Shown piece after piece: positions 3,481 to 42,272 of a stretch of DNA of 59,342 nucleotides. A program made the position numbers and the translations under genes. The notes beneath the pieces were generated by a model that was not told where the DNA came from, made no database searches, and worked only from the letters and a program-made list of their open reading frames with translations. Position 1 is the stretch's first letter, and each line of letters opens with the position of its first letter. Source of the stretch: a virus (Duplodnaviria; Caudoviricetes); IMG/VR virus record IMGVR_UViG_3300030419_004548, positions 1 to 59,342 of that record, one strand, 5' to 3'.

Positions 3481-3733
3481 TTTCTACTACCTCTATGTCA
3501 GTTATGTATGTAATAAAATCATCAGCAGTATACTCTGAGCCCTGGTCATCTCTTATTCGAATCTGTCTGATGAGTTCAGGCTTTTTTTCACATATCATTA
3601 GAAAATTATGTAACATTTGTAATCCTCCATATGAATAGAATTTGCCAAATGATAATTCACCCATTTCTATCCAATCTTTATCTTCTGTCAATTTCATATA
3701 GAAAGAGGCTGATATGTTCTTAGCGTCACTCAT
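3473..3733 (-). CDS. Hypothetical protein
   Basis: ORF with GTG start coupled to the upstream gene. Confidence 0.6.
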   Translation of the reverse strand: MSDAKNISASFYMKLTEDKDWIEMGELSFGKFYSYGGLQMLHNFLMICEKKPELIRQIRIRDDQGSEYTADDFITYITDIEVVENG

Positions 3734-12741: not shown

Positions 12742-13465
12742 AATTATTTTTTATCCTGTTCCAAGTCTCTTCCATTAAACCATAACGCATAGACTTATCA
12801 AATCCATTAAAGTGCCAAACATATCCAGCATCAACAAACATAAAATCTTTTAACAACTCTTTCCTGTAAAGATGGGTAAGGTTGTATTTCTTAGGTAAGA
12901 ATTTAACACTATTATTTATTCTTGTCAAGTAATTTATTGGTGTTTGGTCAGTTCCTTTACTAATTGTATTTTGTAGATTAATAAGTTCTTCTCTGTTTTG
13001 AGATTCAAATTCTATGAACTTATCACATAATGATTTATGCTCTTTGGTCATAACAATAAATCCACAATTAAAATACTCTTCCCAATCTAACTCTCTATCA
13101 AAAAACTTTTTATATCCTTGTATACTTTCTTGTACCCAACCAATATTATCATTATCAGGACAGGCACTAAATGAATCAACTAAATCAAAGAAGTTTGGTG
13201 CGTTCCATTTGACCATAGTATCAACATCAACTAAAGCAACTTTATCATATTCCAAATCACTATTTTCTAATATCTTCCAAATGTACCATCGTTGCCAAGT
13301 AGGTTTCAATATAGTAGTATCCATTAATGGTTCTTCTAATACCATCAAGTCTACATTGTTTTTATTACACCAATAATTCCAAGTGTTTAAACAGAAGGGT
13401 TTGTAGTCAATATCTACAAGACCTTTCATTGCTGTAATTACAACTACATTTTTATTCATAGACAT
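12731..13465 (-). CDS. Nucleotide-diphospho-sugar transferase (GT8/GT34-like)
   Basis: LVDVDT DxD, YFNCGFIV, DQTPIN, WHFNG. Confidence 0.8.
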   Translation of the reverse strand: MSMNKNVVVITAMKGLVDIDYKPFCLNTWNYWCNKNNVDLMVLEEPLMDTTILKPTWQRWYIWKILENSDLEYDKVALVDVDTMVKWNAPNFFDLVDSFSACPDNDNIGWVQESIQGYKKFFDRELDWEEYFNCGFIVMTKEHKSLCDKFIEFESQNREELINLQNTISKGTDQTPINYLTRINNSVKFLPKKYNLTHLYRKELLKDFMFVDAGYVWHFNGFDKSMRYGLMEETWNRIKNNYEN

Positions 13466-14207
13466 AGTTTGCTGATAACTCTCTAAACTCTAAAAACTTT
13501 TCCATCAATCCGTTAGACTGCATATATCCAAACATTCCTTGTTCAGCATTTTGACAATAAGTTTGTAAATCTAAATCACTAACACCACTTTTGTAAGTAT
13601 GTGCTGAATGATGTATTAACGGACATCTATCTACTACTCCAACTTTCCATCCTTGTTTTTCACATAAGATACCTGATAAAACATCTTGACCCCAACCATA
13701 AACTAACTCATCAGGAAACTGAGGATACACTCTAATAAAATCTTTGTGTATTAATGGTGCTTGAAAGTCTACCCATTTTACTTGTCGAATCTCATTACTA
13801 TTCCAACAATGCATATATTTCCATTTACATTGATTCTCAACTTGTAGAACAGAAGGAGATATTATTTTATAAGTCAATGAGTCTTTGTAAAACATTTCTT
13901 CTCTGAGTGTTCTTACAAAGTTATTTCCTTGAAGGACTAAGTCATTGTTCAATGATAAAAGACTATCGTATTGTTCAGACATTGTGAAGAAATCTAATGC
14001 TATATTTAGAGCACCACCAAAGTATGTATTCTGACCTGTTTCGTGTGTTGTATACTTTGACTTACCATCTTCACGAGAACCATTATCAATCAGAATTAAA
14101 TCATAATCATCTCTTTCATATGGTTTTAATTCTTCCCATAATTTATCTGTCATCTCGGGAAGATTGTGATTGTATATAACTGCTAATGTTTTAGTTGGTA
14201 GGCTCAT
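13452..14207 (-). CDS. Glycosyltransferase family 2-like
   Basis: LIDNGS, YFGGALN, LNNDL, GWGQD. Confidence 0.75.
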   Translation of the reverse strand: MSLPTKTLAVIYNHNLPEMTDKLWEELKPYERDDYDLILIDNGSREDGKSKYTTHETGQNTYFGGALNIALDFFTMSEQYDSLLSLNNDLVLQGNNFVRTLREEMFYKDSLTYKIISPSVLQVENQCKWKYMHCWNSNEIRQVKWVDFQAPLIHKDFIRVYPQFPDELVYGWGQDVLSGILCEKQGWKVGVVDRCPLIHHSAHTYKSGVSDLDLQTYCQNAEQGMFGYMQSNGLMEKFLEFRELSANYVYE

Positions 14208-14898
14208 ATCTATGACCTTCTAATTTAAAATTAATAAATGGATTTAAAGAATGTATATTACATCCATAAACCTCTTGTATTCTATTTTTAATATCTATCG
14301 TGTTTTGGTCAGTTAGATAAAGCCAACGTTCTATTCCACTCCAATTACTTGCATCAGGCCAATGTGGTTTAACGTAACCATCATAATATAATTTTCCGTC
14401 AATCTTACCAACATCATTTCCACAAACAATTATATTCTTAGCGCCCATATAAGCAGCGATGTTCATACAAGTGTTTATAGTAGTCCTAATACAAATCATT
14501 AAGTCTGTTCCTATATTATCAAGTGTCGATTGTTCATTAGCGGGTCCGTTTTCCCACATATAAAAATTATCACCATCCGGACACTCGTTCTCACCTTTGT
14601 CTACATAACCTTTAAAGTATTTACTATATAAAAATTTAATCTTTGGATGATTGTGTAAATCTACAATAGTTTTATCCCATCGTACTTTTACGTTTAAATC
14701 TTTTCCGGCAATATAATCACAAGGATATTTTTCATAAGTTTGATTAACTCCCATTGTTATTTTGTTTTCAAAGAAAGAAGGGTCTACAAAATTCATAGAA
14801 GAGCCACCACCAACTATCCAAATGTCTTCACCTGAATGTACATCTTTTAATTCTTTCAATAACTTATTTGCCATATTTTCTCCAAATGTGTTCTGCAA
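14191..14898 (-). CDS. DUF115/MAF_flag10-like (Maf/sialyltransferase-like or MptE-like) protein
   Basis: LKDVHSGEDIWIVGGGSS, TMGVN, AAYMGAKNIIVCGND; start probably MANKLL at 14874. Confidence 0.7.
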   Translation of the reverse strand: MQNTFGENMANKLLKELKDVHSGEDIWIVGGGSSMNFVDPSFFENKITMGVNQTYEKYPCDYIAGKDLNVKVRWDKTIVDLHNHPKIKFLYSKYFKGYVDKGENECPDGDNFYMWENGPANEQSTLDNIGTDLMICIRTTINTCMNIAAYMGAKNIIVCGNDVGKIDGKLYYDGYVKPHWPDASNWSGIERWLYLTDQNTIDIKNRIQEVYGCNIHSLNPFINFKLEGHRYEPTN

Positions 14899-15520
14899 TC
14901 ATAAAGTCAAATTCAGTATCTATATCTATTGATTCAACTTCATTCGTAACGTGAAACGTAGGTTCATCAGTTACTACATTTCTAAACTCGTGTAAGTCTT
15001 CACAAGATAGAATACAACATCCATAATTTACAGAATAAATATCAGGTAAATCTTGTGAGTTTGGTGCATCACTTGGATTGTAATTTAGTGGTTTCCCATC
15101 TAACCACATATGATGTTTTTGTGATGTTACCGTTACTATATTTCTTGCACCATTTCTAAATCTTGATACACATTCACTTATAGTTTCACTACTAAGTAAT
15201 GGTGATGTACAAGGAGAATACATAATGTATTCACTATCAACTGCAGTAGTTAAATTTACCATAAAATCACTATTGTTCACTTCACTACTCGCATAATAAT
15301 CTTCTCTACGATGTGCAGTTACATTATGTTTACGAGCTATGTCTAACATTTTGTCTGAATCACTCGTCACAACTATTTCATCCAACCCCGCAACTTTCTT
15401 CAGAGTTTCAATTTTTATGTCTAATAAAGTCGTGTTTGCAAATGGTTTTAAATTCTTATTTTTAACTCTTTGTGAACCTTTTCTAACCGGTATAACTGCT
15501 GTTAGTTTATTTGTTTTCAC
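14864..15520 (-). CDS. Acylneuraminate/ulosonate cytidylyltransferase (NeuA/KdsB family)
   Basis: IPVRKGSQRVKNKNLKPF, VTSDS, TSPL, SQDLP, IDIDTEFDF. Confidence 0.9.
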   Translation of the reverse strand: MKTNKLTAVIPVRKGSQRVKNKNLKPFANTTLLDIKIETLKKVAGLDEIVVTSDSDKMLDIARKHNVTAHRREDYYASSEVNNSDFMVNLTTAVDSEYIMYSPCTSPLLSSETISECVSRFRNGARNIVTVTSQKHHMWLDGKPLNYNPSDAPNSQDLPDIYSVNYGCCILSCEDLHEFRNVVTDEPTFHVTNEVESIDIDTEFDFMIAEHIWRKYGK

Positions 15521-16505
15521 TCATAACCTCCTGTAAAATAGCATTCCAATTATCTCTAAAAGTAATTCCTCTGTCATCAATATAGTATTCTGCTCTTGGT
15601 TTTTCCCAAGTAACATAATCTACATATTGTCTAACATCGTATTTTTCTAACCATTCTTCAACTAATTCAACTCCTGTTTTACCATTAACTAATGGTCTAT
15701 CAGGTCTTGCTTTTGCTGTGAATATTATTATATTCCATTTCTCTGATAATTCTTTTAGTGCTTCTAAACTACCACGTATTGGTTCACCATAACAAGTTCC
15801 ATCGTACCAACCTTTATCCATACTATGAATCACACCATCAAAATCTACAGCTATATTTTTCAATTCATTTTCAAATCCTGGTGGAACATTTAAATTAGAA
15901 ATATCTGTATTTACTTCTGATTCTATACCTAATTCTTCAAATCGTCTGTCTTGAGCTTTACCTGCTATTGTCGGACATTTAAATCCTGCTCCGTGTATCA
16001 ATTCATAAATCAATGCTAATGATATTATTTCTGATGTATGATAATTTATTACATCAAAACTAATAGGAATAATTCTTTCGTCTAATCCTTCTTTCGGTTG
16101 TGCGCTCCATAAACAACTATTAATATTATTGTCCACAGACCAATTTAGTCCATTTACTAATGAATTAGAAGACGCACCTGTTGTCGAACAACTTATACCT
16201 ATTGCCAAACATTTAGATTTATCTAATCCTCTACTACGTAACTCTAACCATTTTGATAGCCAAGTTTCAAAAGATTCATCTGAAATAATAGATGTAACTA
16301 AAGTACCACTACCCGGTGCAATTACATTCTTATCAGTTAGTCTTGACATATCAATAGCACCATGGTCTGCTACTCCAAGATTACCACCGTGTCCAAACAA
16401 GAATATATGTTCAGCTTCATTAAATGCTTTTTGTAGTTCTCTCCACTTAGCTGAGTTTCCTATTTGTCTAAATTTACTTTCAAAATTTTCTATACTAACC
16501 ATCAA
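15507..16505 (-). CDS. SIS (sugar isomerase, GmhA-like) domain fused to a HAD phosphatase domain
   Basis: N-terminal FGHGGNLGVADHGAID (SIS); C-terminal AVDFDGVIH, FTA, KPRAEYYIDDRG (HAD). Confidence 0.8.
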   Translation of the reverse strand: MMVSIENFESKFRQIGNSAKWRELQKAFNEAEHIFLFGHGGNLGVADHGAIDMSRLTDKNVIAPGSGTLVTSIISDESFETWLSKWLELRSRGLDKSKCLAIGISCSTTGASSNSLVNGLNWSVDNNINSCLWSAQPKEGLDERIIPISFDVINYHTSEIISLALIYELIHGAGFKCPTIAGKAQDRRFEELGIESEVNTDISNLNVPPGFENELKNIAVDFDGVIHSMDKGWYDGTCYGEPIRGSLEALKELSEKWNIIIFTAKARPDRPLVNGKTGVELVEEWLEKYDVRQYVDYVTWEKPRAEYYIDDRGITFRDNWNAILQEVMSENK

Positions 16506-16514
16506 AGTCTCCTA

Positions 16515-17504
16515 CTAATTTTTCCAAAAATCATAAATGCCTTTTTCGACCTCATAGATTTCCCAAGATTGTCTTTTTCTATTTGGTTGTTCTTGTGCCC
16601 AAGACCACATATTACTTAGACCAAGTTCTAAGTCTGTAGTGTCTTTGTAGTCAAGAAGTTCCATAGACTTTTCCCACGTAGGATGTGCGTTCTTTACTTC
16701 GTGTCTCGGTTCAAGATGAACTGATTTACCACCTTGAATAACATCCATCAATACATTGTTTGCTTCATTAATAGTATAGAACGTACCACTACCAAGATTA
16801 ATTATCTCTTTAGATGCTCTTTCATCTACTCCTGCTTTATATAAAGGTTCTAAACAATCACCGATATAACTAAATGCTCTCTTTTGTTCACCATCTCCAA
16901 AAATAGTCATAGGTTGGTCATTCATATATTGATACATCCAAATACCTAATACGTTTCTGTACCTATCCCAAATGTTTTGTTTCTCACCATACACATTATG
17001 TGGTCTAATAATACACCAATCTAATCCGTGTTGTTCACCTGCGATTTGAATATCCATTTCACAAGCATACTTTGCTACACCATAAGGGTCTATTGGAGTA
17101 GGAGTATGTGATTCATCAAACGGAGGATTTCCGTGTCCGTAAACTGCCATCGTAGAAGTAAAAACGAGTCTCTGTACATCATAATTTATACAAGCATTTA
17201 TTACTTTTGATGTAGACATCAAATTATTTTTATAATTAAAAGACCTCATAAAAGGACTCAATCCTTCTGCGGCATATGCGGCAAAGTGATAAACTATATC
17301 AGGTCTTGCTGTTTCGAATAACTTTTCTAACTTACTATTATCTGCTAAATCAAATTGATGAAATTGAACTTCTCTATGTACATTATCAATGTAACCACCA
17401 CTCAAGTCATCAACACCTATGATTATATCATCTGTATTAGTTGCGAACCAATCAGCTAATCTACTACCAAGTAAACCTGCTACTCCTGTTATTAATATTC
17501 TCAT
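16515..17504 (-). CDS. NAD-dependent epimerase/dehydratase
   Basis: ITGVAGLLG, DDLSGG, HFAA, STMAVYG, YGVAK, RPHNVYG. Confidence 0.9.
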   Translation of the reverse strand: MRILITGVAGLLGSRLADWFATNTDDIIIGVDDLSGGYIDNVHREVQFHQFDLADNSKLEKLFETARPDIVYHFAAYAAEGLSPFMRSFNYKNNLMSTSKVINACINYDVQRLVFTSTMAVYGHGNPPFDESHTPTPIDPYGVAKYACEMDIQIAGEQHGLDWCIIRPHNVYGEKQNIWDRYRNVLGIWMYQYMNDQPMTIFGDGEQKRAFSYIGDCLEPLYKAGVDERASKEIINLGSGTFYTINEANNVLMDVIQGGKSVHLEPRHEVKNAHPTWEKSMELLDYKDTTDLELGLSNMWSWAQEQPNRKRQSWEIYEVEKGIYDFWKN

Positions 17505-18139
17505 ACTTTTATTCCACTTATCTCCTCGTTATAGAATTTATTTTGTTGTTCTTGTTTTTCAATAGTCTTTGTATGTAATAAACAAAACTCATCTTCAAAT
17601 GGTAATGCTGTAGTTACCTTCGCACCTGTCAGTATTTCGTGTACAGGTTTTACCCATTTAATTCTTTTATCATTCTTGTATAATCTTGCTTGTGGGTCAG
17701 GAAAATTTATCCTACCCTTCTCATCTAATCTATATCCATATCTTTTACAATGCTCTTCTGTTATTCCTTCTACGGTATTTATTCTCGGTATCCAAAACAT
17801 CTCTACCGTAGGATTAGCATTTATCAAAGCCTTGATATTTCCTATTAGTGTGTCTTGAGGTATCTCATCTGCATCTAATTGAAAAATATAGTCTTTTGTA
17901 CATAGAGAATTTAAGTAATTTTTATGAGAAGCAAAATCTTTTTTTAATTTTTTTTGTTCAAATTTATCTATAAATCCACAATCAATATAAGGTTTCAACA
18001 TATCCAAGTGACTATCATAGCTGAAGTCATCAAGTACAACTACTTCATCTTCATCTTGAATTTTCCAATTCATTAACTCATCAAGCAATCTTTTTAATTC
18101 ATAAGTCTCGTTGTGAGATGTTATCGCATAACTAATCAT
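17501..18139 (-). CDS. Glycosyltransferase family 2
   Basis: VLDD, QLDADE, PRIN, PDPQARLY, VHE. Confidence 0.85.
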   Translation of the reverse strand: MISYAITSHNETYELKRLLDELMNWKIQDEDEVVVLDDFSYDSHLDMLKPYIDCGFIDKFEQKKLKKDFASHKNYLNSLCTKDYIFQLDADEIPQDTLIGNIKALINANPTVEMFWIPRINTVEGITEEHCKRYGYRLDEKGRINFPDPQARLYKNDKRIKWVKPVHEILTGAKVTTALPFEDEFCLLHTKTIEKQEQQNKFYNEEISGIKV

Positions 18140-18567
18140 AATATCGCATCCAATACTTCAGGTTCTATTTTTACGGGTTCGAGAAAGACTTGACCTCGTG
18201 ATGCTCTATCATAATAATATGTTCTGTAAATCCCATATTTCTTAATCAAAGCTCGTGTTCTTGAGTACACTTGAGGACTTCTTCCTTCAACTAAAATCTT
18301 TATAATATTATCTTTTTTATCTACTTCTTTTATAGTACCAATCTTTTCAAATAAATCTATCAATGCAGATTCAGAACGAATAGCAGGAACATTTCTTACA
18401 TCTAATTGGTATCCGTGTAGTAAGAGGTTCTTTGAATTAGGATGTTTCAATCTCTTTTCAAGTACAATAACACTTCGTTTTGTAGAACGACCATCACTAC
18501 CTTGATATCTGAAAGATACTATATCTCCTCTTTCAACTTTACCCCAACTATATGGTTGTCTTGCCAT
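18136..18567 (-). CDS. Hypothetical phage protein
   Basis: Coupled ORF; at most a faint resemblance to T4 gp2-type proteins. Confidence 0.55.
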   Translation of the reverse strand: MARQPYSWGKVERGDIVSFRYQGSDGRSTKRSVIVLEKRLKHPNSKNLLLHGYQLDVRNVPAIRSESALIDLFEKIGTIKEVDKKDNIIKILVEGRSPQVYSRTRALIKKYGIYRTYYYDRASRGQVFLEPVKIEPEVLDAIL

Positions 18568-19027
18568 TTGATTTATCTACGTGTTGTGTTATTCCTAATG
18601 ATTTACAAGCATCAAGAAATTCATATTTACTAAATGATTCTGCACCATCGACATCAAGAAACGTTTCATAGTAACCACCATCAGGTTTAGGATAGTTCTT
18701 TCTTTGGTCTTTTGGTATCTCTTTTACTTTGGCAACTTTGTAGTACCATAACTCAGGTTCACCTTCAGGATAAATCATACCCATAGCTCCCATATTAATT
18801 AAAGAAGGATACCATTCTAATCCTCGTTCTCTGTCTTCTATTTTTAATTGTTTTACCAATGATGTATAATTTTGTGTCTCTTCATCACACTCATTTAATT
18901 TAAGTGCTGAGTTAGAAGTATAACCACAATCAAAACAAATATAAGATTCGAATCCTTCGTCCGTAACTTCTACAAAACAAGAATGATTATCACCATTGAA
19001 AGTAGGACAAGTTGTTTTCTTTTCCAT
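18548..19027 (-). CDS. Hypothetical protein with zinc-ribbon-like N-terminus
   Basis: CP...C...CFDCGY. Confidence 0.6.
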   Translation of the reverse strand: MEKKTTCPTFNGDNHSCFVEVTDEGFESYICFDCGYTSNSALKLNECDEETQNYTSLVKQLKIEDRERGLEWYPSLINMGAMGMIYPEGEPELWYYKVAKVKEIPKDQRKNYPKPDGGYYETFLDVDGAESFSKYEFLDACKSLGITQHVDKSNGKTTI

Positions 19028-19030
19028 TTA

Positions 19031-20341
19031 CTATTTCACCTTTTTAAGTTTAGGTAATTTCACACTATTTTCTTTTTTCTGTAACTTGGGTAAATTAACT
19101 GCTACGTGTTCAGGTATGTTTTCTACGTAAGGTTTAATTATCTTAGCCAACTTTTCTGTCATACCGTTTAGTGTAAATTGTTCATTAGCAATCTTCTGAG
19201 CATATGATTTTGTTAACCACTTATCATAGTTAGTAAATATGTCTTTTAGAAAATGAGAACCTGCCGCAAAATCTACCTGAAACCATTGTGCACCTTCAAA
19301 CATATAATCTTTAGGTATAGAATCTTTATGCACATCAACTAAAGCTCCTGGCAACATAGCAGACATTTCTTTATCAAGAAAATCTACGTGACCTGAAAAA
19401 TTAGGTGCTATGATAGGTTTACCTGTAGTACTAAACTCTAATAAGGGTCTACCAAATCCTTCACCTTTAGTAAAACTAACCATAGATTTTATTTTAGGGT
19501 GATTATATAATTCATTCATTTGTGTATCAGACAACTCTCCGTGTAATAAATAAATAGAAGGAGCTTTCTTATACACACATTGTTCTTTTACTTCTTTAAT
19601 GCTGTTCATTAAATCATATTTGTCTATAGGACTATGTGTGCCTCTTGAAGTTTTCAATACTAATGCGGGTGCATTATCAGTATTCTTAAACGTTTCTATA
19701 AAAGTCTTGACTAAACTTGCAACATCTTTTCTATCGTGTCCAAATGGACCAGGTAACCAATGTCCTGTAAATAGATATGCAAAATCTTCTTTTATAGAAC
19801 CAAGTTCATTTGCTATGCTTTCACTATACTCATCCGTCTTCTTGTATATAGTTTCATCATATCCTTCAAATAAAACTTCGATAGGTTTACTACATTTAAT
19901 TGTACCTGCTTTGTTTCCCTTCTCATCTTTTTTATCAAATGAAGATGAACCCATAACCGTCTTAACAAATTCAGAAGGGACTATATTCAAGTCCATTCTA
20001 TTCATCGCATCTACCCAATTAGGATGAGGTAGTGTCCATTCAACTCCGGCAGTAACACCTATATTAACTTTACCAATATTTTGAAATTCAGTTGGTACAC
20101 TAACGTGAAAATGTATATCAGGCTGTCTTTCGATACGACCATCTATAGACAATGTTTCTATGATTCTTTTATCTCTTTCATCATCTGAATTAAGAGCATT
20201 TTGAGGAGTGTTGCCCCATCTGATAGGTAATGTCTTTACTTGGTAACCTAAATCTAAAAGTGAAATTACTATATCTCTTGCGTGTGAACCATAACCACTA
20301 CGAGTACCTACAGGTCCTATAACTGAAACTAATTTACTCAT
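19031..20341 (-). CDS. Glycosyltransferase, GT-B/GT4-like
   Basis: SGYGSHAR, PSEF, RKDV, KGEGFGRPLLEF..TGKPIIA..SGHVDF. Confidence 0.85.
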   Translation of the reverse strand: MSKLVSVIGPVGTRSGYGSHARDIVISLLDLGYQVKTLPIRWGNTPQNALNSDDERDKRIIETLSIDGRIERQPDIHFHVSVPTEFQNIGKVNIGVTAGVEWTLPHPNWVDAMNRMDLNIVPSEFVKTVMGSSSFDKKDEKGNKAGTIKCSKPIEVLFEGYDETIYKKTDEYSESIANELGSIKEDFAYLFTGHWLPGPFGHDRKDVASLVKTFIETFKNTDNAPALVLKTSRGTHSPIDKYDLMNSIKEVKEQCVYKKAPSIYLLHGELSDTQMNELYNHPKIKSMVSFTKGEGFGRPLLEFSTTGKPIIAPNFSGHVDFLDKEMSAMLPGALVDVHKDSIPKDYMFEGAQWFQVDFAAGSHFLKDIFTNYDKWLTKSYAQKIANEQFTLNGMTEKLAKIIKPYVENIPEHVAVNLPKLQKKENSVKLPKLKKVK

Positions 20342-20342
20342 C

Positions 20343-21806
20343 TTAAACCTCGTATAACTGAAATTGTTTAATCGGCTTCCACTCTTTAAATGTAGTGTCT
20401 ATCGATTCTATAAAAGCTTTTCCCATATTCTTTGCTGATAAAGAAGTCTCAGGTAACAAACAATATTCTCTTCCTGCTTTACCTGCTTTCTGTCTGTATT
20501 CAGCTGAATGCTTATACCACTCATATAGTCTATCACCCGCATCTTCCCATTTAGGTCTGTCATCAAATATGTATGGTGTCTGTGGTGAACCTTGTAATGA
20601 ACGAGATGCAGGCCAAACAGGCTTTACCCATTCACCGTGTTCTGTATATCTACCATCGTGATTAGAACCCCACTCTTTTGTATAATCTTCTTTCATTAAA
20701 AGTGAACCATCTTCTTTTCTAAATCCACATTGGTCTTGCATTCCACCTGTAACGTTAACAACAATCGGTGTTCCTGCCATTAATGATTCTGCTGTACCAA
20801 GTCCGAATCCTTCATTAGATGCTATGTTAATTGTAACATCAGATATATTGTAAAGTATATTCATATCATCTTCATCTAATCTTTGTGGTATAAACATAAC
20901 TTCAGCGTTTGGACAATTATGTCTAACGACCTCTACTAAATCTGTACCGTTATTATCAACAGGTGCTGTTTTCATTATCAACAAACAATCTTTTCTTTCT
21001 TCGTCTGATAATTTATTTAACATATGTGCATATGCTAATACTACATCACCTGGCAGTTTTCTACGTATGTTTCTATTATTCCACAACACAACAAATTTAG
21101 TATTTTTATTTCTGATATTGTCGTCTTTCCATTTCATCATTTTATCATACGATTCTTTGTTTTTAGAATCAATAGGAAAGAATACTTTTTCATTAATACC
21201 ATGAGGTACAAGTGTATTCTGCCAATCTTTTACAGGAACATTCTTTCTAACGTTACGTACAATATTCCAAGTTTGTTTTGTTATGTTCATCAAACAATCT
21301 ACTGATTCATAGAAAGGTTCATTCCACATTGGATATGGTAAGTCATCCCAAATATTATAATAAAGAATTGGAATTCTTGAACGAATCTCGTGACTCATAT
21401 CAAACATAAATCTCCAAAATCTTGGGTCAGTATAAATTATTATAGCATCGGGATGATAATGATTCATCAGTTCTCTAACTAAAGTATCACTTCCGTATCC
21501 TGATATAGGATGTACAATTAGATTAGCATCTTCTACACCTGTTTTTGTTCTCAAGTCGTCAGAGCAATTAAATATTTGACCTTCTTCAGGATGTTTAATA
21601 GCACCACCTGCTTGTATCCAATCATACTTGTGACAAGTTTGTCTTATCATTTCTAAAGACATAACTCCTACACCTGATGCCATTCTACAATCATCAGAAA
21701 ATAATAATATCTTTTTCTTACCTGATGGACTCTTTCCTCTTAAATCAGATAACGGTTCTGCTTTAGCAGATACCTTTTTTAATTTAGGTAATTTTATATC
21801 AGCCAT
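20343..21806 (-). CDS. Glycosyltransferase, GT4-like
   Basis: SGVG, PHGIN, NRNIRRK, NEGFGLGTAESLMAGTPIV. Confidence 0.9.
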   Translation of the reverse strand: MADIKLPKLKKVSAKAEPLSDLRGKSPSGKKKILLFSDDCRMASGVGVMSLEMIRQTCHKYDWIQAGGAIKHPEEGQIFNCSDDLRTKTGVEDANLIVHPISGYGSDTLVRELMNHYHPDAIIIYTDPRFWRFMFDMSHEIRSRIPILYYNIWDDLPYPMWNEPFYESVDCLMNITKQTWNIVRNVRKNVPVKDWQNTLVPHGINEKVFFPIDSKNKESYDKMMKWKDDNIRNKNTKFVVLWNNRNIRRKLPGDVVLAYAHMLNKLSDEERKDCLLIMKTAPVDNNGTDLVEVVRHNCPNAEVMFIPQRLDEDDMNILYNISDVTINIASNEGFGLGTAESLMAGTPIVVNVTGGMQDQCGFRKEDGSLLMKEDYTKEWGSNHDGRYTEHGEWVKPVWPASRSLQGSPQTPYIFDDRPKWEDAGDRLYEWYKHSAEYRQKAGKAGREYCLLPETSLSAKNMGKAFIESIDTTFKEWKPIKQFQLYEV

Positions 21807-31942: not shown

Positions 31943-34672
31943 TTAGAAATTGACCGATAGGCCAAGGTTGAAGCTTCTTGGAGTTCCAAGAAAGACTTCA
32001 GCATTATGAGCTAAGTGCATTTTATCACCATACCCATTATACTTTGAGTTATCAACTGCGTCTTGGATGTAAACATCATCAAGTGCGTTGAATAGATGAC
32101 CATGTAAAGTCATATCAAGTCCTGCAATTTCAGGTAATTTATAAGATAGATGTAAGTCTAACTTACCATAAGATGGAGTTTTCCATACTTGCGCTCTATC
32201 TGCATCACCGTCTACTTCACGACTATCAGGACTCCAATCAGCATAGTGATTGTCATACCATCTGTAAAGTCCTTGAACACTTAGACCTTCAATAGGCTTT
32301 AGTGTAAGACCACCAACATATGATGTCTGTGGCATATCACCGACTTTAAGATTATTAAGAGCATATTCATACTCTGTAGATGTTTGACCAATGATTTGAT
32401 TATCATCATTGTATTCCATCTCTGTATAATCACCATTGGCATCGCCATCGAAATACCAATCACCGACACTTACAGCAATATCTAAATCAACCATTTCGTG
32501 AAGGGCTACTTTAGATTCAATCTCTACACCTGAGTGTGATTGATTTACACCTGTAAGATAAATGATGTCAGTATCACCTGAGTCACCTTGTCCTGTAGTA
32601 ACAGACTTAGTAAGGTTTCTATCCTTCCATTGTGTGTTATAGTAACTACCTTTGATAGCAACTAAACCACTTTTATATTCACCGCCAATTTCCATTGATG
32701 TGAATTTTTCGTTGTCAGGATTTGTAGATACGTTACCATCATAATCAATAACGTTATCTAAGATTGGTGGTTTCTGTACATATCCAAGATTAGCAAATGC
32801 TGATAGTCTATCATCAAGATTATATCTACCACCACCTTTAACTTGGAATGTTGTGATGTTGTCAGCAGTAACTTTAGAAGCATCAACTGCAAAATGGTCT
32901 AAGTAAGAATATCCAATAGTAGATATACCACCCATACCATAAAGACTAAACTTCTCAACATCATACTTACCTTGTAAGAAAGCACCGAACCAATCAACCG
33001 TTGTTTCGTTGTGATATGCGATAATGTCACCTAAACGAACCACTTTACCATCAGCGGCATTATCATCAGCGTAGTCTACATAGTAGTCTCCACCAAGTAA
33101 ATCACGAACTTCACGCGCGTGTTCTATACCAGCAGTTCTCCAATCAATACCGACTTGAACTTCAAGTGCATCTGAAACATCATAGTTTAATTTAGAAATC
33201 AAACCATAAGTGTTTTGTCTATTGATTGAATTACGAAGGATACCTGTTGAACGATTTTCAACATCAGACCAAGCAGAATCTACATTAGCAGAGTTCTGTT
33301 CAATCTCAGCATTCCAATCCCAAGTCCAAGGCGAACTTGCATACCAAGCATTTCCTTCTATCGCGGGTTGTCTACTTACGCTACCATAAGTTCCTGTTCC
33401 TCCACCTGAACCACCTGACCAATACAGAACAGAACTTAACCTCATTTGGTCATTCAAATCATAAAAATGATTTAAGTTGACAAGAGGCTTGTGAAAAAAG
33501 TTCTCTCTTTCATTTAGAAAGTTAGAACTATATCTATCGGTTGTACGCGCTCCGTACATATACCAATATTGTTGACCTTTATATGAAGGGTCAACGGGTG
33601 CCACGTTTTGATTGAAGAATCTACCTGCTTCGTGTTCAAACTTTTCGCCTGAAACATAAGCAGAGTCATTATACCCATCAATACTACCTGCTAACTCTTG
33701 TGAGTAAGTGGCAATATTTTGTTTGTATAGATTCTGTCCGTGACGTTGTGGTGCACCGATTGCATACAACTCAAAACGTTGGTCATCACTTACAGCATAA
33801 CTCGCTCCCGCGTAATATGCCCAAGCATCTGTCCAAGTTCCATCAATGAATCCGTCACCTGTTTTACGAACTATAGTTCCACTCAAAGCTAACTTATCTT
33901 TGATAAGACCTGAGTTATAGTTCAGAGTGGTTTTAAGAAATCCACCCTCACCAACTTCCTGCTTTAACTTACCGCCCTTCTCTTGAGCCGCAGGGTCAGT
34001 TATTATGTTCATAGTTCCACCAATTGATGGTGTTGCGAGATTCACGGCTGATAGACCTCTTTGCATCTGAATTGAAGAAGTAGCATCTCCTACTCCATCC
34101 CAATTAGACCAATAGACCCATCCGTTCTCCATATCATTCTGAGGAACTCCGTTTATCATCACAGCAACATTTCTTTGGTTAAAACCACGTACATTGATAC
34201 GAGCATCACCCGCACCACCACCTTGTTGAGTTGCATATACTGAAGGTGTAGTGTTAAGAATCATTGGAATGTCTTGAGAACCTAATCTCACTTCCATCTC
34301 TTCTTTACTAACATTCGTATAAGCAACAGGTGTTGTTTCATCAGCACGTGAAGCCAAGACTTCTAATGCTGATAGTGCTACAACGTCAGCTACTAAATTG
34401 AAGCTAACTGAAGCAACTATATCGCCTACCTCCACGCTTTGGGTTTGGGCGATGTACCCGATGTACGATGCAGTAATATCAAAAGTACCTGAACCGGTTT
34501 CGATAACAAATTTACCAGCGTCATCACTAACGCCACCAAGTTCAGTTCCTTCAACAACTACATTCGCTCCAACGAGTGGACCATCTTCAGTACCAACATA
34601 TCCTGTAACAGCTTGTCCGAAAACAAGACTAAAAGACATTGCTAATACTGAGATTAGATTACGATAATTCAT
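31943..34672 (-). CDS. TonB-dependent outer-membrane receptor with N-terminal carboxypeptidase-regulatory-like domain
   Basis: Signal peptide MNYRNLISVLAMSFSLVFG (ATG at 34672, AGGAG 7 nt upstream); PLVGANV..GT..G.SD..GKF domain; plug TPSVY...INVRGF..NVAVMINGVP; amphipathic beta strands; C-terminal PRSFNLGLSVNF beta-signal. Confidence 0.95.
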   Translation of the reverse strand: MNYRNLISVLAMSFSLVFGQAVTGYVGTEDGPLVGANVVVEGTELGGVSDDAGKFVIETGSGTFDITASYIGYIAQTQSVEVGDIVASVSFNLVADVVALSALEVLASRADETTPVAYTNVSKEEMEVRLGSQDIPMILNTTPSVYATQQGGGAGDARINVRGFNQRNVAVMINGVPQNDMENGWVYWSNWDGVGDATSSIQMQRGLSAVNLATPSIGGTMNIITDPAAQEKGGKLKQEVGEGGFLKTTLNYNSGLIKDKLALSGTIVRKTGDGFIDGTWTDAWAYYAGASYAVSDDQRFELYAIGAPQRHGQNLYKQNIATYSQELAGSIDGYNDSAYVSGEKFEHEAGRFFNQNVAPVDPSYKGQQYWYMYGARTTDRYSSNFLNERENFFHKPLVNLNHFYDLNDQMRLSSVLYWSGGSGGGTGTYGSVSRQPAIEGNAWYASSPWTWDWNAEIEQNSANVDSAWSDVENRSTGILRNSINRQNTYGLISKLNYDVSDALEVQVGIDWRTAGIEHAREVRDLLGGDYYVDYADDNAADGKVVRLGDIIAYHNETTVDWFGAFLQGKYDVEKFSLYGMGGISTIGYSYLDHFAVDASKVTADNITTFQVKGGGRYNLDDRLSAFANLGYVQKPPILDNVIDYDGNVSTNPDNEKFTSMEIGGEYKSGLVAIKGSYYNTQWKDRNLTKSVTTGQGDSGDTDIIYLTGVNQSHSGVEIESKVALHEMVDLDIAVSVGDWYFDGDANGDYTEMEYNDDNQIIGQTSTEYEYALNNLKVGDMPQTSYVGGLTLKPIEGLSVQGLYRWYDNHYADWSPDSREVDGDADRAQVWKTPSYGKLDLHLSYKLPEIAGLDMTLHGHLFNALDDVYIQDAVDNSKYNGYGDKMHLAHNAEVFLGTPRSFNLGLSVNF

Positions 34673-34703
34673 AATCATTCTCCTATTGTTGTGTTTGAAC
34701 ATT

Positions 34704-34737
34704 GACACATTTTTCTACAGGTGTGTCGTCTGCCTGT
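34704..34737 (-). promoter_or_regulatory. Candidate H-type RNA pseudoknot in the receptor 5' leader
   Basis: ACAGG-CAGAC-GACACA-CCUGU-AGAAAAA-UGUGUC: 5-bp and 6-bp fully Watson-Crick stems. Confidence 0.55.
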
Positions 34738-34748
34738 CCGCTTTTGTG

Positions 34749-36758
34749 TTAATTTGCATAATCCTGGTCATCATTGTCACCTGTCATCGGTATAATTTCA
34801 CACGAATCATTATTACAGAATTTATCTACTTCTGCTTCTTCGTGTTTAATCACACCAAATGTCAGACGACCAAGTTTTGAAACCTGTTTCTGATAAGTCT
34901 TCTCATCAATAGCTTCGTAAGGCATCTGTGGATAAGCACCATAATCGTGTCTTGGCAACAGACTTATTCCTTTTAAGTGATATTGATAATAATTCAATGC
35001 GGGTGCAATCTGTTCTGATTCAATTTCAGGATTGAACGTTACCGTACAACTAACTTGATTATCAGCCCAATGTCTTTGCATAAATGCCGCTAAACTAAAT
35101 TGTTCCCATATTGAAAGTTCTCCTGCAGTTCTGATGCCTTCTCCTACATCTACAGGAACTTCTACAACCATTGTTGTGTCTTCAGAACCAAACGCAGGTT
35201 CTACTTTATATCCTGCTTTTTTCATTGGTTCTAATAAATCTGAATGTTTTGAAACTCTAATTCTTCTAATATAAAATCTTGATTCAGGATAATGGAGACC
35301 AGGTGTCGCACCTGCTAATAGAGATACCGTTCCACTTGGTTTAACTGATGTTGTTTTTATAGAACGAGGAACAGCCATCCAATCTGAATATTGTTTATCC
35401 CAATCTTGAATAACATCGTATCCATCATTCAACCATTTTTTCAATTCACCTAATCCACGATTAGTAATGAACTGAGCAACACCACTAACACTACAACCAA
35501 TTCTTCTGTTTCTTAACATCACTCTATTTGTATCACTCCAATGAGTTCTACCTAACGTAACCGTCTTAGCATAAAGATACGCATATTTAAGAGTACGTGC
35601 ATAATCTTCAAAACTTTCGTGATTCTCAGGAAACGTTTCTACTAAACAGCATAACTCGTAAGACTCAAGCGTCTGCTCTAAACAAGGGTTGCCTCCCATA
35701 GCTCTGTGGTCTTTGTTGTCTCCCCCATTTTTCATTCTTGAGTACTTTCTCATATTGTCCAACCAAGCAAATCCTGGTTCTCCATTATCATTTATTCTCT
35801 TCGCGGCCTCTGAATAATCCATTCCTAACTCAGCAAATATACTATTGTTAGATGTCCAACCATATTGGTCACGATGAGGATTGACTTTATAATTTTTTAA
35901 ATCTAAATATTCTTCATTATCAGGTTCACCAAATACAATCTCTGCAGTTCTTCTTACATTACCCGCTACAACACATTTACCAATTAGATTCATTATGTCT
36001 ACGATTGTTGTTATTGTGATTGGTTCTCCACTATTCTTTTCAAGTACTTTTCTAATGTCTTCGTGTACTTCTAATAATGGTTCGTGACCACTTGCTACAC
36101 CACCAAATCCACTGATAGGTTCACCTGCAGGTCTTATCTTTGTATAGTCAAACTCAACAGGTGCTTGTCCGTGAAAGTAACTCTCTAATAATAGTTTCAT
36201 TGATTCTACCCAACCTTCTCTTGTATCGGGTATCTCATAAACTTGTTCTTCTCTATCTTTTTCTATACCTTTAACTATTATTTCTCCTGCACCTTTTGTA
36301 TCAAAACCAACACCAACACCTAACATACTCGCATCCATTAAGAAACAGAATGGCTTAGCATAATCTTCTTTAAGTGTTTTTGTTGATACAAAGGCACAAT
36401 TATTTAGGGCGGCATATAATCCTTTTTCTTCTGTGATTGGTGTACCCATAGCCCACAGACCGCGTCCAGGAGGCAAAAACTTCATTTGAAATATACGCTC
36501 ATACATATCTTGAGCAGACTTTTGAGCTTGCCACGCATTCCACCCTAATTGGTGTGATTCAATCCAATTCTTTTGCATATTGTAAGTTCCCTCTACAACA
36601 CGTTGAACCGTCTCCCACCATCGTTCATTCTTCCCATCTGCTTTAATTCGTGAGTAGGTTCTCATATAAACTAATTCTCCCAATCCATTAAAACCAAAAG
36701 GTGCTTTTTTCCGTTTATAACCATTAATAAAATTATCTGAGAGTTTAAATTTTTCCAT
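34749..36758 (-). CDS. nrdJ: Class II (adenosylcobalamin-dependent) ribonucleotide reductase, monomeric type
   Basis: RTYSR, LPPGRGLW, LNNCAF, VVAGNVRRTAE, NPCLEQ, CCLVE, RNRRIG, VKPSGT, C-terminal CNNDSC. Confidence 0.95.
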   Translation of the reverse strand: MEKFKLSDNFINGYKRKKAPFGFNGLGELVYMRTYSRIKADGKNERWWETVQRVVEGTYNMQKNWIESHQLGWNAWQAQKSAQDMYERIFQMKFLPPGRGLWAMGTPITEEKGLYAALNNCAFVSTKTLKEDYAKPFCFLMDASMLGVGVGFDTKGAGEIIVKGIEKDREEQVYEIPDTREGWVESMKLLLESYFHGQAPVEFDYTKIRPAGEPISGFGGVASGHEPLLEVHEDIRKVLEKNSGEPITITTIVDIMNLIGKCVVAGNVRRTAEIVFGEPDNEEYLDLKNYKVNPHRDQYGWTSNNSIFAELGMDYSEAAKRINDNGEPGFAWLDNMRKYSRMKNGGDNKDHRAMGGNPCLEQTLESYELCCLVETFPENHESFEDYARTLKYAYLYAKTVTLGRTHWSDTNRVMLRNRRIGCSVSGVAQFITNRGLGELKKWLNDGYDVIQDWDKQYSDWMAVPRSIKTTSVKPSGTVSLLAGATPGLHYPESRFYIRRIRVSKHSDLLEPMKKAGYKVEPAFGSEDTTMVVEVPVDVGEGIRTAGELSIWEQFSLAAFMQRHWADNQVSCTVTFNPEIESEQIAPALNYYQYHLKGISLLPRHDYGAYPQMPYEAIDEKTYQKQVSKLGRLTFGVIKHEEAEVDKFCNNDSCEIIPMTGDNDDQDYAN

Positions 36759-38356: not shown

Positions 38357-39353
38357 TACGTGTAAGTGTATCCAAGGTTGACCAACTTTCTCTCAACCAC
38401 ACTTCTAAATTTTGAATCTCATTTGAGAATCCGTCTTCTAAATACATTTGACGAAATTTGAAACTATTTAAAGAGTTTGGCTTGTTATCAACAAAATCAA
38501 GAACTTTTTGTTTCGCATTACCACTTATAATTATCTCCTTCAAATCCATTAATTCAAAATTTCTTTTTAAAATATCTAAATTATCTGATAACCTATTATC
38601 TCTACTAACTAATTCTTTTAGACTTATAGGCTCTGTAGAAATTTCAGGATATAATTTAATCAAAGTCTTTAGACCTATTCCTTTAACACCTGGAATATTA
38701 TCAGACTTATCACCATCTACCATTCTGTACATCAAAAAGTTTTCAGGATGTATATCATACTCTTCCATCAAAGTTTCAGTATTATATAACTTTTTCTTAG
38801 ATGGACTATATACATTTATCCTATCATCTACTAATTGTAGAAAGTCTTTGTCTGTAGACATTATGGTGCAACGGGTAAACTTTCCCTTATTTGCTACGTA
38901 TGAAATTACATCATCTGCCTCCACATTGTCAAGCGAAAAAGTTTGAACAGGTAAACATTCTAAGTACTCCATCAATCGTGACATCTGTTGTACCATAGAA
39001 GTGTGTTCATCACCTTCTTTACTAAACTCTACTCTTCTATTTAATTTAGATTTAAAGGCACGACCTGCTTTATAATCAGGAAATAATTTCTTACGTTTTT
39101 GTGAGCCACCTTTACCATCAAAGACGATTAGGATTCTTGTAGGCCTAATAAGTTTTATTATATAACTTAGTGACCTCAAGAATCCTATCAATCCTCCTAT
39201 GTGATAACCATTGTCACTCATCATAGGTATAGCACTAAAACATCTGATAAAGTTATTTAGACCATCTATTACTAACACATGGTCATTTAACTTCAATGGC
39301 TTTGATGGATTATTTTTTATCTCATCAAGCAAACTCAGATATCGTTTTTTCAT
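38349..39353 (-). CDS. 5'-3' exonuclease / RNase H (T4 rnh, PolI N-terminal family)
   Basis: IDGLN, VFDG, YKAGR, EADD, STDKDFLQL, GDKSDNIPGVKGIG. Confidence 0.95.
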   Translation of the reverse strand: MKKRYLSLLDEIKNNPSKPLKLNDHVLVIDGLNNFIRCFSAIPMMSDNGYHIGGLIGFLRSLSYIIKLIRPTRILIVFDGKGGSQKRKKLFPDYKAGRAFKSKLNRRVEFSKEGDEHTSMVQQMSRLMEYLECLPVQTFSLDNVEADDVISYVANKGKFTRCTIMSTDKDFLQLVDDRINVYSPSKKKLYNTETLMEEYDIHPENFLMYRMVDGDKSDNIPGVKGIGLKTLIKLYPEISTEPISLKELVSRDNRLSDNLDILKRNFELMDLKEIIISGNAKQKVLDFVDNKPNSLNSFKFRQMYLEDGFSNEIQNLEVWLRESWSTLDTLTRNG

Positions 39354-40251
39354 CGTATTCCTTTACTTTTTGTGCTATGTATTCTTCAAGTGTATGTGTA
39401 GGTTTCCAACCTAAGAGTTCGTATGCTTTCGTGTCTGTACATAGAGTCTCTCGCATTTCTCCAGGTCTCGGTCCTATATTTACACTATCAGATTTATATA
39501 GTTTAACAACCTCATTTATACTATAGTTCTTACCTGTACCTAATTCAAAGTACTCTGCTCTTAAATCAGCAATCTTATCTTGACAATCAATCAATGCACT
39601 ACATATATCTAATACGTGAGTAAAGTCTCTTCGTTGTTCACCATCATTAGTAATTGTCAATGGTTCACCTCGTTCTTTCAACTCATCAAATATAGAAAGA
39701 ACCGTTGCATATGCACTTTCTGCTGGTATCATATAATCACCATACACGTTATAGAATCGTGTTATTATTGTAGGTAAGTCATAAACCTTAGAATATAACT
39801 CACATAACAATTCACCACTATACTTGTAAAAAGTATAAGGATTGGCATAATGGTCGCCGTGAATAGAACTTGAACCTGCGTATACTACAGGAATATTTCC
39901 ATTAACTCTTGCCCACTCTAAAATATTTTGTGTTCCAACTACATTAGCTGCGAACGTATTTTGAGGGTCTGTGAAAGATGGTTGTATCCTTGCTAAAGCA
40001 GCGAGATGATATATCATATCAGGTTTCCAATCACCCTCACCTACTACTACTTCGTGAAGATGTTTATCAAAGAAATAATCTGTAAGGTCAAACTCGTGAT
40101 ATGTTACTCTGTCATTATCAATAATATTCAAAGGAGAACCTGTTGAGTAATTATCTAAAACTTGAATGTAAGTGCTAGGTTGTTCTTTTAAGATTTTACT
40201 AATTAAATTAGTACCTACAAAGCCCGCACCGCCTGTAATCAATATCTTCAT
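39325..40251 (-). CDS. NAD-dependent epimerase/dehydratase
   Basis: ITGGAGFVG, HLAA, GSSS, YTFYK, RFYNVYG, RDFTHV. Confidence 0.9.
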   Translation of the reverse strand: MKILITGGAGFVGTNLISKILKEQPSTYIQVLDNYSTGSPLNIIDNDRVTYHEFDLTDYFFDKHLHEVVVGEGDWKPDMIYHLAALARIQPSFTDPQNTFAANVVGTQNILEWARVNGNIPVVYAGSSSIHGDHYANPYTFYKYSGELLCELYSKVYDLPTIITRFYNVYGDYMIPAESAYATVLSIFDELKERGEPLTITNDGEQRRDFTHVLDICSALIDCQDKIADLRAEYFELGTGKNYSINEVVKLYKSDSVNIGPRPGEMRETLCTDTKAYELLGWKPTHTLEEYIAQKVKEYDEKTISEFA

Positions 40252-41422: not shown

Positions 41423-42178
41423 TTACTTATTGAAGAGTTGGTCGAATGCTTCAGAAGTATCTTTTACGGTTTTCTGTGAAAGAACTTCAGAAGTTACAGA
41501 CTCATCTTTTTTATCAGAACTCTCATCCTCAGAAGGAGTCAACCAATTGTTGAGAACTTCTGTTAAATCATCATAAGAACGTTCCTGATACATCTCTTGC
41601 ATATTAGGTTGTTCATTTAACAATTTATCAAGAAGTTTGTCATCTTCTGTGATTGGAGTTTGATTAGGCTTAACCCTAATGTTAGTAACAGGAAAATTCT
41701 TTCCTGCTTCTTCAGCAGAAATAAATTCTACCGTTACGTCACGACCATTCATTGAATCTGTGATATCACCATAGTCAGGGTCTGCTATTACAGATAGAAG
41801 CTCTTGATAAACCATTTTACCAAAGCCCCAAAAACGAACACCTTCAGACTCTTCACCTCTAACGATTACAGGAGCGAATGTTCTCATCTTTGCCATAAGT
41901 TTTTTCGCTATCTGATAATCATCTTTGTTACCACTTGAACGAAGTTTTTGTGCAAACTCTTCAATCGGGTCAGGGCGACCATAAGTGATTGGAGACAAGT
42001 AAGTCTTACCACCTAAATCATAATGAAAGAACATTTCCAAAAAAGGATTTTCTTTATTATGTTGATAAGGCACTATACGTACTACTTGTTTTCCGGGTTG
42101 TGGTTTCCAAAGATTTGATGTCTTGGTGTTAGAAGTTTGAAGTTGTTCTAACCTTTTACGAATTGCTGTAATATCCAT
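41423..42178 (-). CDS. Single-stranded DNA-binding protein (gp32-like)
   Basis: WKP..G..VRIVP, DPI, VRFWGFGK, DITD..GRD, acidic C-terminal tail ending FDQLF; adjacent to recA. Confidence 0.8.
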   Translation of the reverse strand: MDITAIRKRLEQLQTSNTKTSNLWKPQPGKQVVRIVPYQHNKENPFLEMFFHYDLGGKTYLSPITYGRPDPIEEFAQKLRSSGNKDDYQIAKKLMAKMRTFAPVIVRGEESEGVRFWGFGKMVYQELLSVIADPDYGDITDSMNGRDVTVEFISAEEAGKNFPVTNIRVKPNQTPITEDDKLLDKLLNEQPNMQEMYQERSYDDLTEVLNNWLTPSEDESSDKKDESVTSEVLSQKTVKDTSEAFDQLFNK

Positions 42179-42237
42179 TTGCTATTCTCCTATTAGTTAA
42201 TTATTAATTTGTTAATTGTTACTTTTGTAACCATTCA

Positions 42238-42247
42238 TATATAAATA
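42238..42247 (-). promoter_or_regulatory. Putative promoter motif TATTTATATA
   Basis: Intergenic, 59 nt upstream of the SSB start. Confidence 0.55.
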
Positions 42248-42272
42248 TGAACTTAAATCTGAAAACGTTAAT

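Follow-up and report, generated by a model that had tools for sequence, protein, structure and literature searches.

A covarying H-type pseudoknot in the leader of a TonB-dependent-receptor-like gene of T4-like marine phages, probably a new cis-regulatory RNA

Comparison with described pseudoknots

Compact pseudoknots of the H type underlie several described leader RNAs. SAM-II, SAM-V and guanidine-III are H-type pseudoknots with coaxial stems and loop–helix triples; they act as translational switches and place the Shine-Dalgarno sequence (SD) in or beside the 3' strand of their second helix (P2). In preQ1-I an A-rich 3' loop runs along the first helix (P1), P2 has 3–4 base pairs (bp), and loop 2 (L2) reads the ligand. 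The operator of phage T4 gene 32 consists of a pseudoknot followed by an unstructured A/U-rich leader to the ribosome-binding site (RBS). In triple-helix (minor-groove) pseudoknots, a conserved A-rich loop and a C-containing loop 1 (L1) are expected. Here we describe a 34-nucleotide (nt) element of related shape on the minus strand of IMG/VR virus record IMGVR_UViG_3300030419_004548, a 59,342-base record (estimated 32% complete) analyzed over its full length and called the window below. The element lies in the 77-nt gap between the stop codon of a B12-dependent ribonucleotide reductase (RNR) gene and the start codon of a gene for a TonB-dependent-receptor-like protein (the receptor), directly 5' of the latter, as a preliminary description made from the letters of the window had placed it. 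The leader has the following parts, all on the minus strand:

34741-34738, minus: GCGG 5' flank, common to most leaders and swapped in CCTGG-type lineages (alignment A1 and leader list)
34737-34733, minus: P1 5' strand, ACAGG, pairing with 34721-34717
34732-34728, minus: L1, CAGAC; CAG nearly invariant, the final two bases free
34727-34722, minus: P2 5' strand, GACACA, abutting the P1 3' strand, so that L2 is zero
34721-34717, minus: P1 3' strand, CCTGT, placed from sequence and alignment
34716-34710, minus: loop 3 (L3), AGAAAAA; its 5' part varies in sequence and the loop has 4–9 nt among relatives
34709-34704, minus: P2 3' strand, TGTGTC, which with the preceding A supplies an invariant AUG
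34703-34685, minus: spacer of 19 nt, A/C-rich and G-poor, variable in sequence, 11–27 nt in relatives, predicted to be mostly unpaired
34684-34680, minus: SD, AGGAG; an SD-like core was located in 81/81 unique leaders
34672-34670, minus: receptor start codon, ATG, read from the sequence

In the window, P1 (5 bp) and P2 (6 bp) are perfect Watson-Crick helices. The letters, the zero-nt junction, the A-rich L3 and the distance of about 19 nt to the SD all agree exactly with the preliminary description. The helices are interleaved and both covary (see below), with an L1 of 5–7 nt and an L3 of 4–9 nt, as in an H-type pseudoknot.

Among described elements, preQ1-I (RF00522) resembles this one in size (about 34 nt), H-type fold, 5-bp P1, A-rich 3' loop and 5' leader position. 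In contrast to preQ1-I, P2 here has 6 bp and covaries, there is no L2, the SD lies outside and away from P2, and the gene context has nothing to do with queuosine. SAM-II, SAM-V and guanidine-III differ in that the SD of our leaders stands 11–27 nt from P2 and the gene contexts are unrelated. With the T4 gene 32 operator the element shares a T4-like phage background and the layout of a pseudoknot followed by an open leader into the RBS, whereas it precedes a receptor gene and not gene 32. Ligand-free triple-helix pseudoknots (luteovirus frameshift signals, telomerase RNA) are alike in being short, with a zero-base junction, a conserved A-rich loop and a C-containing L1; unlike the frameshift type, the element has no slippery site and no fixed upstream spacing, and it sits in a leader rather than in a coding overlap. 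The genomic context, with a B12-dependent RNR next to a TonB-dependent receptor, is reminiscent of cobalamin riboswitches, although the element is far too small to be one and gives no match to them.

Covariance-model searches gave the same picture. Rfam 15 had no match at gathering score anywhere in the window, nothing relevant was found at E up to 10 in the 401 nt or 91 nt around the motif, and five variant phage loci gave no match. This covers preQ1-I, preQ1-II/III, SAM-II, SAM-V, guanidine-III, NAD+-II, fluoride, cobalamin and all other Rfam families, and bears out the earlier judgment that the element does not match the known pseudoknot aptamers. Because the covariance-model tests failed, P2 is longer and abuts P1, the SD is remote and the gene is not gene 32, the element belongs to none of preQ1-I, SAM-II/V, guanidine-III or the T4 gene 32 operator. 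More generally, it is a conserved structured element in the 5' leader of a transport gene, as a riboswitch would be. Full-text literature searches, supplements excluded, found no description of the motif or of a phage-encoded TonB-dependent receptor, and passages of a preprint on marine viruses carrying ribonucleoside-triphosphate reductase (RTPR) mention neither.

The T4 comparison also drew attention to the leader of the phage's own gp32 gene (window 42179-42272, minus strand; loci L443-L522), which is conserved across 44 unique relatives. A promoter-like TTGTAT-N17-TATACT/TATATA comes first, followed by a hairpin (GGTTAC-loop-GTAAC) whose loop varies; some 35 nt of A/U-rich sequence with UUAAC-like repeats then lead to AGGAG. 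By its appearance, this is a gene 32 operator in which a hairpin takes the place of the pseudoknot.

Conservation and covariation of both helices

Searching IMG/VR with the receptor protein returned 358 relatives, or 363 with a second, 70%-identical query, and the best 80 from each search were taken. The resulting 159 loci, in which some contigs occur twice, all come from one phage lineage with 68–93% receptor identity. The motif was present exactly once in 150/150 viral loci having upstream DNA; the other 9/159 were cut at the 5' end of the gene. The 150 motif-bearing loci reduce to 81 unique leaders.

The named pseudoknot was scored against shuffles in a covariation alignment (A1) of 82 rows, 67 of them distinct. 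Standard pairs filled 97.6% of cells in the distinct rows, in comparison with 91.8% in shuffles, and double-sided changes occurred in 6/11 pairs, three per helix, amounting to 38 cells vs 6.6 in shuffles. The covariation score was 0.185 vs 0.082 in shuffled alignments, and 0/500 shuffles reached 0.185. When the 3' partners were shifted by 1–3 columns, 0–3 doubly changed pairs were left. In P1, pairs 9-29 and 10-28 (alignment columns) covary (CG/UA and AU/UA) and both G-C pairs are invariant, giving helices in which ACAGG/CCUGU is replaced by AUAGG/CCUAU, CCUGG/CCAGG or ACUGG/CCAGU. In P2, pairs 21-44 and 23-42 switch from AU to GC and pair 20-45 from GC to AU; thus GACACA/UGUGUC is found also as GGCACA/UGUGCC or GACGCA/UGCGUC. 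RNAalifold, which cannot draw pseudoknots, independently recovered P2. The preliminary description had made its candidate depend on conservation and covariation of the two stems in homologous leaders, and both stems were found to be conserved and to covary.

A FastTree tree was computed from 112 distinct receptor-coding segments of 1,050 nt, excluding loci with less than 1,000 nt downstream and identical segments. The two variable P2 pairs needed at least 17 and 15 state changes on this tree, and two pairs of P1 at least 7 and 3. From these many changes it appears that compensation arose, or was reassorted, many times; recombination could inflate the tree counts.

The pattern of fixed and free positions is uneven. 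The two junction-side G-C pairs of P1 and three P2 pairs, including the A-U pair at the junction, are fixed. In L1 (CA.G) column 14 is always A, and C13 and G17 reach 90% conservation or more; L3 closes with four invariant A (34713-34710), preceded by an A that is at least 90% conserved. The bases at or above this level of conservation read GG, CA.G, C.CACC and AAAAUG, whereas the distal helix pairs, the beginning of L3 and the two final bases of L1 vary. G-U pairs were present in P2 of 5 rows; these and the A-rich L3 are as expected if the mRNA strand is the functional one.

Hence, the element is almost certainly a real structured cis-RNA. Judged from the alignments, it is under strong purifying selection and is maintained as an H-type pseudoknot in the 5' leader of the receptor mRNA.

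Single-sequence statistics and folding energy

The judgment that the pseudoknot is real rests on the comparative evidence (presence and covariation), not on single-sequence statistics. A scan of both strands for perfect H-type pseudoknots (5+6 bp, L1 of 1–7 nt, L2 of 0–1 nt, L3 of 3–10 nt) found 9 in the window vs 8.07 ± 4.29 in 40 dinucleotide shuffles, which is not above chance, and nested folding was unremarkable (z = 0.00 for 101 nt and z = -0.82 for 43 nt). The single hairpins are weak, at -4.4 and -4.7 kcal/mol, and the stacking sums of the stems are -9.2 and -11.5 kcal/mol; a pseudoknot costs a penalty of roughly 9–10 kcal/mol. Taking these values together, with energies summed outside any pseudoknot-aware program, the double-stem state is plausibly the stable state.

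Distribution and specificity

A loose pattern of the motif gave at least 120 matches on viral contigs. Among the 80 loci with DNA that were examined, one was a chance match and 79 held the true motif, with two complete stems in 66 cases. The receptor gene followed about 60–80 nt downstream in 72/72 motif loci with at least 150 nt of downstream sequence; the remaining seven were too short. The motif stays beside the receptor gene even in the 7/81 unique leaders in which other DNA separates it from the RNR gene. In five of these leaders such DNA amounts to 0.5–1 kb (L021, L023, L059, L269 and, in part, L028-type extensions), and in L077 and L275 the RNR gene is absent within 1.4 kb. The distance from motif to receptor SD was 11–27 nt throughout, including the RNR-separated leaders.

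A covariance model built from P2 plus sequence (R1) had one match in the window, at 66.9 bits, with a runner-up of 9.9 bits. It also had one match in each of four related contigs of 100–130 kb; in a fifth the receptor gene is cut by the contig end. The motif is therefore private to one gene and present in a single copy per phage genome, as observed on contigs of 59–130 kb. Searches of phage isolate records found no DNA match, and receptor protein matches were all below 31% identity, in unannotated records.

The same loose pattern, used in a non-exhaustive scan of bacterial and archaeal genomes, gave at least 120 matches. Both stems were complete in 0/80 loci examined, and none of these had a receptor or RNR gene nearby; 6/80 passed a looser rule (4/5 plus 5/6 stem pairs) and were judged to be chance matches. 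Full-length orthologues of the receptor were found at 35 places among 401 genomes, in Bacteroidota, with 44–53% identity. At 30 of these bacterial orthologue loci (L413-L442) R1 found nothing above 12.1 bits, and in 151 whole Bacteroidota genomes it gave no match at E up to 0.001. The motif thus appears to be a phage feature that is not found with the cellular gene in the sampled Bacteroidota.

Possible functions of the pseudoknot

The element is probably a new cis-regulatory leader RNA that matches no described RNA family, a candidate of high quality for a riboswitch or an operator, and we infer that it controls the receptor gene after transcription begins. For the mechanism, a ligand sensor of the riboswitch type seems the single most likely candidate, a preference that we hold tentatively; a stabilizing or enhancing structure and a protein operator, taken together, are more probable than a ligand sensor. 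Three points favor a sensor: the target is a transporter gene, the placement is single-copy and in cis, and the junction core is fixed with free distal pairs. Transporter genes are the commonest riboswitch targets, and a fixed junction core and loops with varying distal pairs form a pattern that, so far as alignments can tell, is typical of aptamers. A small molecule would bind the invariant core at the P1/P2 junction and stabilize the fold, and the stabilized fold would change either ribosome recruitment by the adjacent open leader and strong SD or the rate of mRNA decay. The 3' edge of the pseudoknot is 24–39 nt 5' of the start codon in the leaders, and the 5' edge of the 30S footprint falls at about the same place, so that any action of the element would come from the margin of the region that binds the ribosome and not from hiding the SD, a mechanism unlike SD sequestration.

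Most plausibly, the signal would reflect the supply of nucleotides or their precursors, a suggestion that comes from the gene neighbors in the phage, where the receptor gene lies among genes for DNA precursors, and from those of the bacterial orthologues. In 11/13 tested cases the next open reading frame (ORF) downstream of a bacterial orthologue, on the same strand, encodes a type I phosphodiesterase/nucleotide pyrophosphatase (PF01663), and in one case the product has a lipoprotein signal; the remaining 2/13 neighbors are a second TonB-dependent-receptor-like gene. These PF01663 neighbors suggest that the receptor imports nucleotides or organophosphates rather than B12. A cobalamin or other Rfam riboswitch was absent at 30/30 bacterial orthologue loci, where Rfam found only tRNA. 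If the element is a sensor, its signal is more likely to be nucleotide-related than B12. In its fullest form, which is possible and at the same time doubtful, the proposal is that of an undescribed minimal riboswitch class of about 34 nt, restricted to an abundant T4-like marine phage lineage, that senses a host metabolite, plausibly a nucleotide-related one, and switches on the phage's own outer-membrane importer.

Several results weigh against a ligand sensor. In nested-fold models the unpaired probability of the SD was 0.41 with the motif free vs 0.40 with the motif bases blocked, and that of the start codon 0.47 vs 0.47, and no alternative pairing that couples the motif to the SD was found. 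The spacer has a predicted mean unpaired probability of 0.74, and its 11–27 nt of unconserved sequence separate P2 from the SD; a terminator does not fit either. In these models, then, none of SD, terminator or competing complement provided a riboswitch expression platform. The preliminary description had also proposed a competing hairpin between the 3' strand of P2 and a downstream ACACA. This sequence is indeed present in the window (34694-34690), whereas a corresponding complement exists in only 5/81 unique leaders, so that the hairpin is not a conserved feature. Moreover, the motif is limited to one phage lineage and one gene and offers no varied contexts from which a ligand could be deduced. 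Nor do fixed loop bases prove a ligand pocket, since ligand-free triple-helix pseudoknots should have them as well.

Further candidates were rejected. Sequestration of the SD by the P1 3' strand is unsupported, as accessibility is unchanged with the motif blocked. An upstream competitor, ACACA at 34749-34745, appears in the nested minimum-energy fold, but a complement to the P2 3' strand occurs within 30 nt upstream in only 1/81 leaders. Pairing of an upstream box, TTCACATAC, with AUGUG is, by eye, compensated in about one of some ten leaders with the GCG form of P2. An upstream ORF starting at the invariant AUG would be in frames 0, 1 and 2 in 20, 33 and 28 of 81 leaders, and its peptides are unconserved, so that the AUG is free of coding constraint. 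The invariant AAAAUG (34710-34704) would provide an A-rich start context if unfolded, and short ORFs from it overlap the receptor SD and start in all frames. A secondary role of the fold could be to hide this start.

Next in probability to a ligand sensor, though by itself rather unlikely, is a constitutive structure near the 5' end that senses no signal and protects the mRNA from 5'-end-dependent decay or serves as a standby or enhancer platform. In that case the receptor mRNA would begin at the pseudoknot or close to it, either with a primary 5' end or with one made by processing of an RNR-receptor transcript. Contigs from metatranscriptomes of two studies that include the 5' region of the receptor gene break off within the 5' portion of the motif (X3 record 21 at 34733, X4 record 29 at 34728), one over the RNR 3' end (X1) reaches only to 34748, and no listed contig bridges 34734-34747. 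These are assembled contigs, which cannot define ends and whose gaps and depth carry no information; they give only a weak hint of a 5' end, primary or processed, at the motif. The prediction of no SD-coupled switch is in keeping with a stabilizer, and the gp32 leader has a parallel layout (5' hairpin, about 35 nt of open A/U-rich leader, AGGAG) that may be a general phage design. The leader-dependent mRNA stability of T4 gene 32 provides a precedent. For a stabilizer, however, pairing alone would suffice, yet there is no variation in the unpaired CAG, the A run or the junction pairs, next to positions that do vary. In addition, a plain hairpin is enough for gp32, and on contigs of 59–130 kb the element accompanies one gene only.

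It is unlikely, and less probable again, that the element is a protein-binding operator like that of T4 gene 32, at which an RNA-binding protein of phage or host occludes the leader and the RBS, possibly by spreading cooperatively. Among the genes of this T4-like phage are those for a gp32 homologue, a clamp-loader and a RecA/UvsX-like protein, the layout is that of the T4 operator, with 11–27 nt of unpaired, G-poor, A/U/C-rich RNA leading into the SD, and fixed loop and junction bases would suit specific recognition by a protein. On the other side, the phage's own gp32 leader has a simple GGTTAC-loop-GTAAC hairpin, unlike the motif, and R1 finds nothing there. The receptor is exported to the outer membrane and cannot autoregulate, and a dedicated regulator for a single site would be uneconomical.

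There is little to recommend a signal that belongs to the upstream gene or to the DNA, such as a recoding stimulator, a protector of the RNR 3' end, an antisense terminator or a DNA-level site, and we consider it very improbable. In most loci the motif does follow shortly after the RNR stop codon, a terminator-like hairpin and T run were scored on the plus strand (34717-34737), and an inserted ORF, read from stop to stop, extends into the motif in L021 and L023, as far as a UAG at the P1 3' end and L3. However, the distance from the upstream coding end to P1 is 2–55 nt when RNR is adjacent and more than 500 nt in 7/81 leaders, whereas the distance to the SD is steady at 11–27 nt. The leader alignments contain no conserved slippery site, and there is no fixed spacing of about 5–9 nt to a slippery site or stop codon, as a recoding stimulator would show. 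All non-embedded ORFs of at least 80 amino acids (aa) are on the minus strand. The plus-strand terminator call accounts for P1 only, not for the covarying P2, and lies on a strand with embedded ORFs only. The P2 G-U pairs would be A-C mismatches on that strand, and two crossing helices are not the signature of a protein site in double-stranded DNA.

A chance arrangement without function can practically be dismissed: the single-sequence frequency is as in shuffles (9 vs 8.07 ± 4.29), but conservation (150/150), covariation, recurrence on the tree and receptor linkage (72/72) refute it, and the loose pattern in bacterial genomes yielded 0/80 examined loci with both stems and no receptor or RNR nearby.

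There are few small pseudoknot aptamers, and new biology has come with every class added. The motif is abundant in marine viral data, with the 358–363 receptor relatives in IMG/VR and thousands of close receptor proteins in metagenomes, and its target is unusual, a phage-made TonB-dependent receptor encoded between a B12-dependent RNR and a dUTPase. The identity of a signal would show how the phage tunes nutrient import during infection. A sensor would also be a compact natural part for RNA engineering, and even a stabilizer or an operator would offer a clean new system for studying what pseudoknots do in phage mRNAs.

Genomic context

The two genes that flank the element are:

34749..36758, minus: adenosylcobalamin-dependent ribonucleoside-triphosphate reductase (class II RNR), stop codon TAA at 34751-34749
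31943..34672, minus: TonB-dependent-receptor-like outer-membrane protein of 909 aa, Pfam Plug and CarbopepD_reg_2

The identity of the RNR was established with Pfam RNR_Alpha, RNR-II_ins_dom and Ribonuc_red_lgC and with NCBIfam TIGR02505 (RTPR; 371.9 bits vs a cut-off of 340). The receptor has a signal-like sequence at its N-terminus. In the direction of transcription, the order is 5'-3' exonuclease, DnaB-like helicase, RNR, the element, receptor, dUTPase and family B DNA polymerase (PolB), and plus-strand ORFs occur only embedded in longer minus-strand ORFs. PolB matches T4-type phage polymerases, with that of a Microcystis phage best at 45%, and the gp32 homologue occupies 41423-42178. By these gene sequences the phage is assigned to a T4-like marine lineage.

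The nearest cellular clusters are from Bacteroidota or Fidelibacterota, both of them candidate host phyla. SD-like sequences precede 25/56 crude ORF starts, which exceeds the usual expectation for Bacteroidota.

Positions 3730-21806 and 39325-40251 of the window hold a long block of sugar-nucleotide and glycan genes, of an extent unusual for a phage. It includes several glycosyltransferases of families 2 and 1, a GDP-mannose 4,6-dehydratase, epimerases/dehydratases, a UDP-glucose/GDP-mannose dehydrogenase, a cytidylyltransferase and methyltransferases.

Further features of the leaders

The box TTCACATAC lies 0–18 nt upstream of P1 in 39/81 unique leaders (45 with at most 1 mismatch), among them L005, L012, L018, L024, L027, L046 and L066, and is absent from the window (34742-34760). 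It might be a local promoter, an RNA 5' end or a protein site. As a general phage promoter it was rejected, with 27 matches in the window at up to 1 mismatch vs 23.3 expected, which is no enrichment.

Between pseudoknot and SD, 18/81 leaders carry a small palindrome by a 4-bp hairpin test, for example TTCATTAATGAA or TTCGTTAACGAA, two forms that differ by compensating changes. Such spacers were seen in L021, L030, L045, L052, L053, L060, L062, L213, L254 and others; the palindrome is absent from the window.

In L021 (1482-2066; L023 alike) the DNA of about 0.5 kb between RNR and motif contains a stop-to-stop frame of 194 codons, which crosses P1 and the P2 5' strand and ends at a UAG spanning the P1 3' end and L3. 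In L077 a tRNA gene (5780-5852) lies just downstream of the receptor gene.

On the bacterial side, four orthologues (L431 at about 1400-1450, L435, L438 and L439) share an upstream stretch, TTGACA.GGGAGGAAACATTA ... GGTAAAACG. It has no Rfam match and a weak predicted hairpin, and may be a promoter or regulator site.

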